From Octopus vulgaris (taxonomy: Eukaryota), in NCBI GenBank assembly GCA_951406725.2, contig OX597815.1, positions 192,386,001 through 192,450,000 of the forward strand: a DNA stretch of 64,000 bases, read 5' to 3'. The notes beneath the pieces are model-generated. The model was not told the DNA's origin and ran no database searches. It saw only the letters and a list, made by a program, of their open reading frames with translations. How positions within the stretch are numbered: the first letter of the stretch is position 1; the number at the start of each line of letters is the position of its first letter. Of this stretch, positions 34,349-48,801 are shown piece after piece. Both the position numbers and the translations under genes were made by a program.

Positions 34349-35101
34349 TATGTGCTTCACTTTTAAATGTTCGATTTAAAAGTATACATATGGACCATTT
34401 TGATACCAAGTTGCCCGAGACCGACCCTTGGTTTCTTGAGAAAAAAACTTCCTGTTTATAATGATGTAAATTAAAATCTTCAATCAACATTTTGTATTAA
34501 TTTATGTTCCAAACACTAATTTAATAACAAAAACGTTATTTTACTAAATTCTTCATGATTTTCAAAATTAATGAAAAGAAACAACAAAAAAACCCCAAAA
34601 AAACAAAGGCAATACATTTTAACAACAAAAGCAGTGTATTTCACATAAAATATAGTAATGAAAGTTTTATATCACTTAAGGATTGTCAAGGTAATCTCGG
34701 ATCTGTTCGCCAGATATGAATCGCCATTAATTTTAATGTCAATTCATAGACACGTGTGCATGATTATTAAAAGAATATTAATGTACGACAAGATGAACAG
34801 CAAAATGTGAATAACAGTTTAGAACACATGTGTGTCAGTAAATGCAAAACACAAGTTCGCATCTGGATGGTATACGTTTCGCAAGAAGCTAAAAACAAAA
34901 TAAAAACCAAAAAAAAGAAAACAAACAAAAAACCGAGACATTCTGAAAGAAACCGTGGTGCATATATATATATATATATATATGTGTGTGTTAGTGTGTG
35001 TATATATAGGGAGAGTTTACAAAAAAAAACAACAAAAGACCAAGACAGGTGGTGTACAAAACAAACAGATGTACTAGTATAACGCTCAGGAATAGAAAAG
35101 T

Positions 35102-35137
35102 CTTTTAAGTTTCGAGCCTACGCTCTTCTACAGAAAG
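35102..35137 (-). ncRNA. Degenerate minimal hammerhead ribozyme motif
   Basis: cuuu CUGUAGA a gagc-guag-gcuc GAAA cu UA aaag; A6 is substituted, so probably inactive. Confidence 0.5.
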
Positions 35138-35208
35138 GGACACAGAAAAAACAAGGAGAGAAATAAGGAGAGAAATAAGGAGAGAAAAAAATGTGTGTAG
35201 TGGCTAAC

Positions 35209-35610
35209 GTTCGGTTTGAACGGTAGTTTTTAACATAATTTCTAGGTACTAAAAAATTTTAAACTTCGTATACTGGTAGAATGTGTTTATAAAACATCTT
35301 TTTCTCTTGGCTTTATTGAGAAAATTCTATGGTTTGTAAGATATTTGTTGTTTTTTTCTTCAATTTCTGCAATTTCAACCAATCACTGGCGTCTATTGAG
35401 GTAAAAAACATTCTGTGTCGTATGAATGTGTCCCTCGTTTAAGAAACAGATTGGGTTTATTTACATTTGTGAAGAAAAAAAGATACCCTTCTCCCCACCC
35501 CTAACCCTAAAACAGATTGAAATGCAATAGATCGATACTAGGTTCATAATTATAGGTGACAATTTCATATGACACCGCTAGAAAAAACTGCCGTTCAAAC
35601 CGAAAAGATC
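35209..35610. mobile_element. MITE-like element with terminal inverted repeats
   Basis: ttcggtttgaacggtagttttt and aaaaactgccgttcaaaccgaa about 400 bp apart; no ORF. Confidence 0.75.
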
Positions 35611-36004
35611 CAAAAATTATGACAAAGATGTTATTGTTTTGTTACGGACGACTGATAAAAATAATACATACATACATACATGCATGCATGCATGGATACT
35701 TGCATAAATACATACATACATGTGTACATGATTCCAGTGGGATTCTACGTAGTTTCTGCGTACCAAATTTACTCAAAGACATTGGCTAGGCCTGGGACTA
35801 TTGCAGAAAGCACTTGCCCAAGACCACGTAGTTACGATGCAAACTTCTTCACAAAACAGCCATGTTTGCACCCATCGATTATTATCTTTTTTTCCTTTTA
35901 AAATAATTTCAGAAATAGAATACAAATGCAAGTCTCTTTCACATCAGACCCGAGCGTATTTAATTTTAATAGAAGAAGGACATTTTAGTAGCCTAGAATT
36001 TTTT

Positions 36005-36604
36005 GTTGGAAGCACTCCGTCGGTTACGACGACGAGGGTTCCGGTTGATCCGAATCAAAGGAACAGCCTGCTCGTGAAATTAACGTGTAAGTGGCTGAGC
36101 ACTCCACAGACACGTGCACCCTTAACGTAGTTCTCGGGGATATTCAGCGTGACACAAGAGAGTGACAAGGCCGGTCCTTTGAAATACAGGAAGTAAGAGT
36201 GAGAGAAAGTTGTGGTGAAAGAGTACAGCAGGGATCACCACCATCCCCTGCCGGAGCCTCGTGAAGCTTTTTAGGTGTTTTCGCTCAATAAACACTCACA
36301 ACGCCCGGTCTGGGAATCAAAAAAAAATATGAGTATACATATATATTTTAATATTTAGCAGAACAGAGTGACTCTAGGTCAGAGAGTTTCGTGCGTTGGC
36401 ACTTATCAAACTTTGATAAGTGTTAACGCACGAAATTCTCCAGCCCCGACTCACTTTGTTACTTCTGCTAAACGTTAATATGTATATAAATATGTATGCA
36501 TGCAAATATCATGTAAACACTCACAACGCCCGGTCTGGGAATCGAAACCGCGATCCTATAACCGCGAGTCCGCTGCCCTAACCACTGGGCCATTGCGCCT
36601 CCAC
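36005..36604 (-). mobile_element. SINE family C pieces (~36005-36318 and ~36515-36604)
   Basis: Match to the intact copy at 51873-52261; aaacactcacaacgcccggtctgggaatc is duplicated. Confidence 0.8.
36354..36472 (+). other. Compact hairpin; the 29-nt inner arms pair fully on the + strand using G-U wobbles
   Basis: gagagtttcgtgcgttggcacttatcaaa c tttgataagtgttaacgcacgaaattctc; outer arms tttagcagaa/ttctgctaaa. Confidence 0.85.
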
Positions 36605-37483
36605 AGCCTAGGATAAACCATGTCTGAAAAGAAGAAATGGTTACGGCCTGAATACCTTTGATCATAGGTCTGCTCGATGAAGACTGACCTGGTACTAAAG
36701 AAACAACGACGTCGTATGATGATAATACTAATCGTAATAATGGATTAGAATTGATTTGCTACCAGTTCTGATGCTCCTTTGAAAAATGTAAGGCGACACA
36801 AATTTGCTGAAGACTCGTTGTAATTAGTTCTCGAAAGATAGTAACAATCGATTATGTAAAAAGATCAAAGACAATATTCAGAGAAATATAGGCAATATTT
36901 TAATTAACATTTGAGAGTCATCAAATAGATGGAAAAAAATAATCAGGGTGTGGTAAATGGCTTGAAATGGGCTGTTGCGATGGTGAAGGGGAGGACGATA
37001 ATAACAACAACATCAACGATATAAATCTTGAAACAAACAAATAAAACAATTATGAATAAAAAAAAATAGATTAATAAATAAATTAAGAAAAAAAAATGGA
37101 ATCTAACATCCGGGAACATCTTTAAGATGCGAAAATAATGTGGAAATGAGGACATCTTAGTTGTTCCATAAATAACTTTAAAATTCTTCATGGAACCACC
37201 CATAAAACTAATTCACTTCTAATAAGCATTGACTTTTTCTCAATAACGGCCTTAACATCCACACAGGCAGCAACCTCTCTTCCGACTTCTATAGACAGTT
37301 ATTCAAATTAATTATAGAACACAGAAGAAAAAAAGAAAAGACGAAAAGAGAAAAACGAAAGAAAAAAAAAATTTATTCTCTAAATATGAGTGATAATTTT
37401 TCTTAATCTTAATTTTTATTTCTATTTTATTTTTTTTAATATTTTGTTGTTAATTTTTTTTATGTTTTCTTGCTCTTTTTTGT

Positions 37484-46639: not shown

Positions 46640-47115
46640 TCAGTTGGCAGAAACGTTAGCACGCCGGGCGAAATGCTTAGCGGTATTTCGTCTGCCGAAG
46701 GCGGCGAGCTGGCAGAAACGTTAGCACGCCGGGCGAAATGCTTAGCGGTATTTCGTCTGCGTTACGTTGTGAGTTCAAATTCCGCTGAGGCCGACTTTGC
46801 CTTTCATCCTTTTGGGGTCGATAAATTAAGTACCAGTTACGCACTGGAGTCGATGTAATCGACTTAATCCGTTTGTCTGTCCTTGTTTGTCCCCTCTATG
46901 TTTAGCCCCTTGTGGGTAATAAAGAAATAGGTATTTCGTCTGCCGTTACGTTCTGAGTTCAAATTCCGCTGAGGCCGACTTTGCCTTTCATCCTTTTGGG
47001 GTCGATAAATTAAGTACCAGTTACGCACTGGAGTCGATGTAATCGACTTAATCCGTTTGTCTGGCCTTGTTTGTCCCCTCTATGTTTAACTCCTTGTTGG
47101 CAATAAGGAAATAAG
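46640..47115 (+). mobile_element. SINE family A dimer nested in an older opposite-strand copy (~46490-47200)
   Basis: gaatttga.ctcagaa is repeated on both sides of the insert; the head is duplicated. Confidence 0.8.
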
Positions 47116-48450
47116 AATTTGAACTCAGAATGTAAGACCAGAAGAAATGCCGCTAAGCAATTTTTTCTGTGTTCGAACGATTCTGCCAGCTCACCGCCTT
47201 ATAACAATTTCATATATAACACTGAAGCAAAATAAAAGACATTGATGACCAAATAATTTGTGCTGTATGTCGTACGTTACTAAAATTCTAGACCAAATGG
47301 CTCGGAGGGACGAAAATTTAGAACATTGCCAAATTCAAGACTAAGTACGAAACAATATGGATGAATAAAATGTCTTGCGTGGGACAACACCGTTTCGTAT
47401 TAATATGTAAATGCTAAGGTACGTTTGTTTTTGTGAGCAGGAAATAGCGTGAGGAATACAGCGTAATGTGTGTAGGAAACAGAATTGGTGAGAAAAGATA
47501 TAGTGAAGTTTACAATATAGAAGCAAAGACCAGAATGAATCCGTTCAGAATTTCTTCGTTCAGTGCACATAGTTGTCACAAAATGACACTGCTTAAGTGT
47601 CTGATATGAAAGTATATGGTTAGTTACAGGTGTTGCACTAAAACATGTAGTCAAAAGAGAAGGTGCTACAATGTAGCTTTGATATTTGACCTCCGTTTTC
47701 TGATCACAGTCGGCTAGACTCATTCTTTCATAAGCTATGATAGCTGCTAAGACGATACTGCGTAGGACTTCCGATGTGTGAGCGTTGAGGTCATAGAGAC
47801 TATTGCTGCTGCTACTAATACTAGACACACACACACACACGTACATAATACATTCATACATACATACACTGCATGTATTATGACTCGGGCAGATACCCGG
47901 GGCGCCATGTGTTACGTGATGCTAAGGAGTGCGTGACAAAAACAAGGAAATTTCCACAAACGTCATCTTGTACGCACCAAAGTTCAGCTTGCCCGGGACA
48001 CCAGCAACCTTAGGAGCGGCTCTGCACGCACACACACACACACACACACACACACATATTTATAGAAGTAAATGTAGGATAAGCAAGTTGGACAGATCAA
48101 TATATAAAGTATATTAAATACATGAAACACACACACAAAAAAAAAATGAATATATGTATATATATATGCGTGTGTGTGTTTGTGTGTGTGTCTGTGTTTG
48201 TCCCCTGGTGTGTTTATGTCCCCGTCACTTAGCGGTTCGGCAAAAGAGACCGATAGAATAAGTACTGGGCTTACAAAAGAATAAGTCCCGGGGTCGATTT
48301 GCTCGATTAAAGGCGGTGCTCCAGCATGGCCGCAGTCAAATGACTGAAACAAGTAAAAGAGTAAAGAGTAAAAGAGTATACAAAAAGGTCTGACGTACAC
48401 AGAATACAAATGATGTTGAGAATTATAGAGGTTGAAGAAAACTATTGCGA

Positions 48451-48543
48451 ATCCAACAGCTGTTTCAGGAGGGTTGGTGGTCCAAAATAATGTTTATGGA
48501 CTGATTCCATCATAGGAAGAGACGAGTCTCCGTTTTCAGGGAA
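48451..48543 (-). ncRNA. Hammerhead motif, G8 substituted
   Basis: uucc CUGAAAA cggag...cuccu GAAA c-agcu-g UU ggau. Confidence 0.55.
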
Positions 48544-48586
48544 GAGTTCTTACATTTCAGATATTAAAGGAAAGAAGTTAAAAGAT

Positions 48587-48683
48587 GAATCCCTGAAGAC
48601 GAAGACTCGTCTCATCCTACGATAGAATCAATCTACAAACATCATTTTGGACCGCCGAGCTCCCAGAAACAGCTGTTGGGTTC
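48587..48683 (+). ncRNA. Hammerhead motif, core intact, imperfect stem II base
   Basis: gaaucc CUGAAGA cgaagacucg...cgagcuccca GAAA c-agcu-g UU ggguuc. Confidence 0.6.
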
Positions 48684-48801
48684 GCAATACTTATCTTCAA
48701 CCCTTTTAATTTTCTTTTTCATTTGTAGTTTGTTTCAGTCGGACCTTTTTGTACGTAAACCCATATACATTTATTGTATTTCGTGTATTTAATATACTTT
48801 A

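Follow-up and report, generated by a model that had tools for sequence, protein, structure and literature searches.

What kind of element left a cluster of hammerhead-like motifs in a single stretch of octopus DNA? We analyzed 64,000 nucleotides (nt) of Octopus vulgaris (assembly GCA_951406725.2, contig OX597815.1, positions 192,386,001 to 192,450,000, forward strand), referred to below as the window. A preliminary description had named six motifs with the topology of a type I hammerhead ribozyme in it, A (35102), B (41397), C (41728), D (44697), E (48451) and F (48587), plus weaker relics near 20010, 29603 and 56411, and had ascribed them to several families of small, TA-targeted, non-autonomous retroelements processed by their ribozymes. 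Two further motifs, G (44112) and H (58145), were added to this set. Five of the six named motifs lie on the minus strand and only 48587 on the plus strand. We consider it likely that these motifs are the 3' ends of several 5'-truncated families of Penelope-like elements, stranded next to TA repeats, and that most of them are inert. All coordinates are collected in Table 1.

A type I hammerhead with an intact core (CUGANGA or its U3-A8 variant), the GAAA box, a UH cleavage site and three helices was found in C, D and G, and motif H comes near to it. Motifs A, B and E each depart from this form by one core change, and F by a broken stem II. Intact motifs were counted with a strict descriptor, which demanded an intact core (C3-G8 or U3-A8), a palindromic stem III, a stem I of at least 3 base pairs (bp) and a stem II of at least 4 bp, allowed a domain II of up to 100 nt, and was run against 60 locally shuffled windows. 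Its only matches are C and D, two against a shuffled mean of 0.05, and none of the 60 shuffles reached two. Looser descriptors gave six matches against 1.8 (1 of 60 shuffles) and eight against 2.4 (0 of 60), several of them of chance appearance; the shuffle counts are somewhat flattered because the descriptors were set after the motifs had been seen. A scored scan returned 44 candidates, in which C (19.8), D (15.8) and G (15.0) exceed the best of 40 shuffles (13.3), while scores like those of E, H and B recur 0.1, 0.1-0.2 and 0.225 times per shuffled window. The expectation that such motifs would outnumber those of shuffled controls is therefore borne out by C, D and G. The coordinates and type I order given for the six named motifs also held, with strict integrity restricted to C and D and damage in A, B, E and F.

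Comparison with the Rfam covariance models was less informative. Motif D matched the HH9 model at 21.4 bits (gathering score 52, E-value 0.0032 in a 201-nt scan), and no hammerhead appeared among the 150 matches listed of the 323 to the whole window. Such misses say little on the long-domain forms, because the models have short loops. Folding z-scores of whole motifs, -1.7 to +0.3, do not separate them from shuffles. The microRNA matches returned by Rfam were rejected, as they were caused by the TA repeats and the inverted repeat of E and F. A further hit at 29987-30043 (score 11.8) was set aside as a probable chance match lying 1922 nt from a TA tract and inside a 112-codon frame, which we take to be the remnant of a long interspersed nuclear element (LINE), without Pfam support.

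The motifs differ in their stems and in the size of domain II. In motif C, a 9-bp stem II closes a branched domain of 84 nt, stem I has 3 bp beside the core, and stem III is built on the palindrome ACGAUCGU; the folding of domain II reached z -4.1, a value equalled by 0 of 200 shuffles. Motif D is compact, with a 4-bp stem II and a 7-nt loop. Motif G has a 6-bp stem I, a 29-nt stem II domain and a stem III hairpin (AUCAC/GUGAU) with a non-palindromic loop; by its structure, this motif would be the best candidate for cleavage as a monomer. Motif H has a 9-bp stem I with one extra U, and it has the ACCGGU palindrome in common with D, their stems being unrelated. The 6-bp stem II of B closes a 58-nt domain, and its near-palindrome ACAUGUGU contains one mismatch. 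E and F have 66-nt domains and the palindrome ACAGCUGU; stem II of E has 4 bp, the closing stem of F is broken, and stem I of F has 5 bp. The stem II variants of the preliminary description were thus recovered as long forms: four motifs (B, C, E and F) of three families have a domain II of 58-84 nt, with branching in C and E. Self-pairing over 6-10 bp is possible for the palindromes of C, D, E and F.

Motif A has 4 bp in both stem I and stem II and a stem III without a palindrome; like B, it is a single copy within the window. Its 3' flank (34962-35050) is 74% similar to 20134-20221, the flank of the 20010 relic. The three relics retain the 3' half of a hammerhead; they have no usable 5' core and lie outside the matches listed by both scans. 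Just upstream of A, a 22-nt inverted repeat (95%) occupies 35210-35231 and 35583-35604, 351 nt apart, and is perhaps a small DNA element bounding the 5' side of A.

Adjacency to TA repeats, with the ribozymes reading toward them, had been described as a common property of the motifs. A tract of at least five TA units begins within 150 nt downstream of the cleavage site in four of the six named motifs (A, 123 nt; B, 38 nt; C, 102 nt; D, 108 nt), so that this part stands for A, B, C and D and fails for E and F. By chance, 11.8% of strand positions have a qualifying tract. The six named motifs were possibly picked partly for their TA adjacency; C, D and G, which were ranked blind to TA, qualify in three of three cases, with G at 129 nt (P 0.0016). 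An upstream TA tract, 117-342 nt away, was found for B, C, G and the 29603 relic. The distance between the TA tracts that enclose B, C and G, and which their fragments fill, is about 200-540 nt, and the fragment of G (43885-44297, 413 nt) has (TA)n tracts on both sides. In A, B, C, D and G the hammerhead is located 38-129 nt from the TA junction, that is, near the 3' end, as in Penelope elements.

Relatives of motif C were collected as contigs aligned to 41632-42140 at 80% likeness from two sequencing runs, X1 (organism A) and X5 (organism B). They comprise 587 contigs in X1 and 661 in X5, with depth in 30 of 30 bins; summed depth peaks at 12,000-21,000 against 20-48 for long single contigs, and it does not equal copy number. 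These values point to hundreds of relatives of C. One further run, guessed to be RNA, contains 19 matching contigs and allows no conclusion on expression. Scans with motifs of the window families gave 0 loci in collections of metagenome and of viral contigs, where DNA of this animal would not be expected. The relatives cover the 5' core with its stem II arm (41802-41835) and a downstream block (41666-41699) most deeply, and loop 2 (41768-41784) least. The commoner letters in the family repair stem II of the window copy at three positions: G.U becomes G-C at 41821/41748 (66% of depth in X1, 71% in X5), U.U becomes U-A at 41817/41752 (63% and 71%), and U.G becomes U-A at 41815/41754 (37% and 61%), so that the helix reaches about 12 bp. 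In addition, G at 41822 is replaced by A in 76% (X1) and 74% (X5) of depth, and one X5 contig with a 32-nt domain II has U opposite this position; together they probably make one paired change. The core, GAAA, palindrome and cleavage site show no change among the 40 differences listed (there are 89 further). As to the core conservation and covariation invoked earlier, the C family shows stem II repairs around a core unchanged in that list, with a single probable paired change.

The length of loop 2 varies within the C family, with domain II ranging from 32 to 84 nt. Many relatives have no alignment across the 3' half, therefore the subfamilies differ there; the joints there skip 68-112 nt. Joints between opposite strands are present in the family as well. 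As far as position 42140 the relatives have no 5' end in common, and the ends of the aligned stretch are overrun by 60 and 61 contigs. Dispersed occurrence in many copies, as in Penelope-like elements, was thus seen for C, and the bias toward TA was seen in the window. A non-coding block at 41955-42056, 120-220 nt upstream of the ribozyme, is conserved and common to many of the relatives; it is possibly a promoter or a protein-binding part.

Motifs E and F belong to the two arms of an inverted repeat, 164 nt long, 80% complementary and 47 nt apart, with 32 mismatches of which 19 are transitions. The likeness begins at the 5' edge of the ribozyme, is interrupted in the 3' part of arm E by a later insertion of an interspersed repeat (48150-48377), and resumes past it. 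We take this repeat to be similar to a short interspersed nuclear element (SINE). Because the arms are inverted and so not independent, E and F count as one old insertion; both carry the 66-nt domain II, therefore this domain was present in the template. Position 8 is A in E and G in its twin F, so that the A8 of E is read as decay, and a stem II pair kept in E is lost in F. More generally, the core changes in A, B and E look like decay. By its layout, the pair appears to be the inverted 5'-truncated copy known from Penelope-like insertions (PMC8557442) and the opposite-strand pair of PMC4209133. Inversion was also seen as a 40-nt inverted repeat at 29561-29676 and in the opposite-strand joints of the C relatives. 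A direct repeat of a ribozyme unit, as in the partial tandem of pseudo-long terminal repeats (pseudo-LTRs), was not found in the window; a single truncated copy need not have one. At 48802 (+), arm F is followed directly on its 3' side by an end motif that contains CTAG and a GC-rich hairpin; it has further copies at 43331 and 60831 (both +) and 2352 (-), and is presumably Helitron-like.

Penelope pseudo-LTRs of metazoans (Cervera and de la Pena 2014, PMC4209133) carry minimal hammerheads. Thousands of these stand alone, which was explained by truncation of the elements; pairs on opposite strands, separated by 100-700 bp, and many unrelated families per genome were reported as well. The window motifs resemble them in type I order, a short or palindromic stem III, the G10.1-C11.1 pair, solo occurrence and the U3-A8 core. 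This core variant occurs in nature (PMC3088659), including about 1,300 Penelope-type motifs of Schistosoma (PMC4209133). Two differences are the helix II of 7-8 bp with a small loop there, whereas B, C, E and F close 58-84 nt, and the palindromes of 6-8 nt in the window motifs. The self-pairing palindromes of C, D, E and F would fit the dimer model of cleavage through a palindromic stem III (PMC4209133, PMC6765202). The Hydra clade (Craig et al. 2021, PMC8557442), which includes Hydra-1_oBim of Octopus bimaculoides, combines a type I hammerhead at the 3' end with (TA)n insertion; the same paper describes 5' truncation, inverted copies, tails and (TA)n targets, and the octopus Naiads are also (TA)n-targeted. 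The window elements share with this clade the hammerhead near the 3' end, (TA)n insertion and inverted 5'-truncated copies, and the 3' half of the 56411 relic resembles Hydra-clade 3' halves by eye. In contrast, stem III of the Hydra clade is in most cases a hairpin of 3-4 bp whose short loop is usually not palindromic, loop 2 has up to 10 nt in the Hydra elements tabulated there, and the window ribozymes show no sequence match to that of Hydra-1_oBim.

Other systems are more distant. A Naiad "half-core" identity of the long-domain motifs was considered and dropped, as exact short terms gave no sequence match to the Naiad 3' ends available; one 12-mer match lies near the 5' end of Naiad-1_Skow, and the octopus Naiad 3' ends look different from the window motifs by eye. 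In the supplement to PMC8557442, the 3' ends of Naiad_Obim and Naiad_Ovul contain GAAA followed by CUGAUGA about 25 nt away, an order of boxes that may represent a permuted hammerhead. The two PLE-X1 elements of Selaginella (PMC8557442, File S2) have type I hammerheads whose stem II is long and whose loop 2 measures about 30-35 nt, and which the paper marks as departures from the canonical form; unlike the window motifs, they belong to a plant, lack an endonuclease, target ribosomal DNA and have a domain II of about 50 nt. Animal non-LTR retrozymes (PMC7229834; bioRxiv 10.64898/2026.07.22.740005) are similarly non-coding, type I, akin to Penelope pseudo-LTRs and known as solo monomers. They are defined by circular RNAs and by units of about 300 bp that repeat in tandem, every unit carrying a ribozyme; in the window, none of the 138 TRF rows is a hammerhead-bearing array, and the motifs are therefore not retrozyme arrays.

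PAc, a Poseidon element of Anolis, was examined in vitro (Frangieh et al. 2024, PMC11167929): copying starts within the RNA, downstream of the ribozyme, the target is AT-rich, and a tail of 30-40 nt is optional. Cleavage by its ribozyme needed protein, insertion did not need cleavage, and the template was uncleaved. The PAc frame starts inside the ribozyme, and no such frame is evident in the window. Penelope-like elements are abundant in cephalopods (PMC8967140) and are reported to make up 6.83% of the genome of Octopus vulgaris in 190 families (PMC13282606). The picture of several unrelated families with Penelope-like anatomy and no open reading frame agrees with the preliminary description, and the list of reading frames in the window holds nothing Penelope-like. 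Because no reverse transcriptase or endonuclease frame is linked to the motifs, we can only infer that they belong to Penelope-like elements.

If so, the protein of the element would nick a TA repeat or AT-rich DNA and start copying inside its own RNA downstream of the ribozyme, at a distance of some tens to about 100 nt judging from published elements, so that even short copies would keep the ribozyme and lose the reading frame. An early stop of reverse transcription would leave the last few hundred bases only, and an inverted, 5'-truncated second copy would produce E/F. As the copies are unbroken through the cleavage site, the template would have been uncleaved or re-ligated RNA. Dimer formation through the palindromic stem III, or help from the element protein, might enable the ribozyme of the parent element to cut tandem transcripts. 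A solo copy would be without a partner in cis, E and F do not lie on the same strand, and mispairing would affect three central positions in the palindromes of B and C; most of the loci are probably inert today. The long stem II domain, already present in the mobilised RNA, would be an appendage that changes fast and is tolerated, while the helix closing it is conserved.

Several observations weigh against the reading as 5'-truncated Penelope-like ends or limit it. The nearest downstream TA tract is 289 nt away from E and 1582 nt from F, and H has no tract of at least five TA units within 150 nt. The score of A is equalled 1.75 times per shuffled window, which is the chance level, and F is outside the top 16 of the 44 candidates. 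Individual Rfam scans of G, C and E/F matched no hammerhead model. The family check covers C only, one of the eight motifs, and the probable paired change at 41822 could be read as either A-U or G.U. The TA junction at 41637 is crossed by 25 and 28 contigs, which have at least 30 nt of sequence in common beyond it, therefore this junction is not the only 3' end of the C family; the sequence may be a tail or the next unit, or the window copy may have eroded. Upstream, the C family is non-coding for at least 300 nt, and its depth has no steady fall toward the 5' side. No remnant of a reverse transcriptase or GIY-YIG endonuclease was found upstream of A, C, D, 20010 and 56411, the five loci whose flanks were scanned (no significant Pfam hits, 15 frames read through stops); the link to autonomous Penelope copies suggested earlier is thus missing from these local flanks. 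A coding remnant suspected by eye upstream of D was rejected for want of Pfam or protein-search support, the 59-residue frame there having no relatives among 1.84 billion proteins. Finally, 14 short exact motif terms taken from the window matched no published Naiad, Chlamys or Hydra 3' end.

Part of this evidence would suit complete short non-autonomous elements, either retrozyme-like monomers or mini-Penelopes with 5' ends of their own, copied in trans by a Penelope-like enzyme, as the preliminary description had it. The lack of coding remnants upstream of A, C, D, 20010 and 56411 favors such elements, B, C and G fill the spaces between TA tracts, and over 500 nt the non-coding sequence of the C family consists of conserved blocks separated by spacers that vary; derivatives and solo monomers of this kind have been published (PMC8557442; bioRxiv 10.64898/2026.07.22.740005). 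However, missing frames are equally expected of truncated and of non-autonomous copies, 5' truncation is the rule in autonomous elements, and the Hydra consensus sequences have, by eye, about 170-240 non-coding nt between the stop and the ribozyme. Neither a defined 5' end nor a tandem array was found, and plain 5'-truncated ends suffice; we therefore regard non-autonomous elements as unlikely. Nor did the claim of processing by the ribozyme find support, PAc insertion in vitro being independent of cleavage (PMC11167929).

Derivation from another hammerhead retroelement, such as a Schistosoma-type SINE-like repeat or a LINE tail, seems decidedly improbable to us. Hammerheads are known in SINE-like repeats (PMC6765202) and no Penelope protein is linked to the window motifs; on the other hand, the inverted 5' copy, the variable 3' end that runs on, the targeting of TA and the palindrome in stem III jointly fit the Penelope-like pattern, and the ends read have no poly(A) tail. 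That all motifs are look-alikes arisen by chance in AT-rich fold-back DNA or repeats resembling miniature inverted-repeat transposable elements, without any ribozyme history, is hardly credible. Taken singly, A, B, E, F and the relics are not clearly above chance, the whole-motif z-scores are unremarkable, the Rfam gathering score was never reached, and the hit at 29987 shows that a score of 11.8 can arise inside an unrelated frame. Against this, C, D and G score higher than any hit in the 40 shuffles and each of them reads toward a TA tract, and relatives of C restore pairs in stem II and retain the core, so that chance is already unlikely for these three.

Much of what characterizes the proposed truncated Penelope-like families is already published, namely hammerheads that stand alone, pairs on opposite strands, the core variant U3-A8 and insertion into (TA)n, and the window families would be further members. 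The core variants, previously called unusual, are likewise either the published U3-A8 form or changes that look like decay. The only undescribed feature may be the long branched stem II domain: no branched domain II of 58-84 nt in animal elements was found in the literature searched (including PMC7229834 and PMC6155905), on which key papers and supplements may still bear. It can be speculated, and we do so with considerable doubt, that several Penelope-like families use active hammerheads with a long, branched, fast-changing stem II domain, that Rfam and short-spacer descriptors miss them, that their ribozyme load is among the densest, and that the appendage serves as the handle by which the protein switches cleavage. 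If a genome of a few gigabases resembles the window, with three intact cores per 64 kb, it would hold on the order of 100,000 motifs. As Penelope remnants the window motifs are ordinary: 6.83% corresponds to about 4 kb in every 64 kb, close in magnitude to the fragments found. Should the appendage occur throughout a family and permit cleavage, the ribozymes of such genomes would have been undercounted. If true, the window would offer natural test cases side by side for the role of the Penelope hammerhead, from monomer-type G and dimer-type C and D to the long-domain forms.

Table 1. Hammerhead motifs, relics and associated fragments, in positions of the window
Feature	Position	Strand	Remarks
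Relic 20010, weak	19997..20175	+	5-bp stem I, core decayed; 3' flank in common with A
Relic 29603	29561..29676	-	GAAA-palindrome-GUA half inside 40-nt inverted repeat; has lost its 5' core; flanked by TA tracts on either side
Motif A, minimal-type relic	35102..35137	-	core CUGUAGA (A6 changed), bulged A
Fragment B, between two microsatellites	41367..41563	-	motif about 41397-41483; core AUGAAGA (C3 changed), site GUC at 41403
Fragment C	41631..42140	-	member of multi-copy family extending past both ends of the aligned stretch
Motif C	41728..41836	-	intact core CUGAGGA (41833-41827), GAAA, site GUA at 41731
Motif G	44112..44175	+	intact; core CUGAAGA, site AUA at 44169; absent from preliminary description
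Motif D	44697..44734	-	intact U3-A8 core UUGAAAA, palindrome ACCGGU, site GUA at 44700
Interspersed repeat	48150..48377		matches of 82-85% at 53256 and 60371
Arm E of inverted insertion	48379..48542	-	core CUGAAAA (G8 changed), site GUU at 48455
Arm F of inverted insertion	48588..48753	+	intact core CUGAAGA (48593-48599), site GUU at 48677
Relic 56411	56405..56445	-	3' half UGAA-ACUC-U-GAGU-A; 5' core missing
Motif H, near-intact, outside 35008..48801	58145..58192	+	U3-A8 core, palindrome ACCGGU; absent from preliminary description

The window has a GC content of 36% and is rich in microsatellites. It also contains a 184-bp repeat in tandem arrays of 2-4 copies each, at 5043, 26950, 39528 and 46747. 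Pieces resembling LINE frames are located at 17969-18424, 23208-24243, 29903-30241 and 59141-59479; the two that were scanned gave no significant Pfam match, and we assume that they are of the Dong-R4 or RTE type. A broken Tc1/mariner transposase lies on the minus strand at 48980-50092 (Pfam HTH_Tnp_Tc3_2, E-value 6.9e-10; DDE_3, E-value 2.1e-06). Part of the region 44600-48900 is also present in runs of four organisms.

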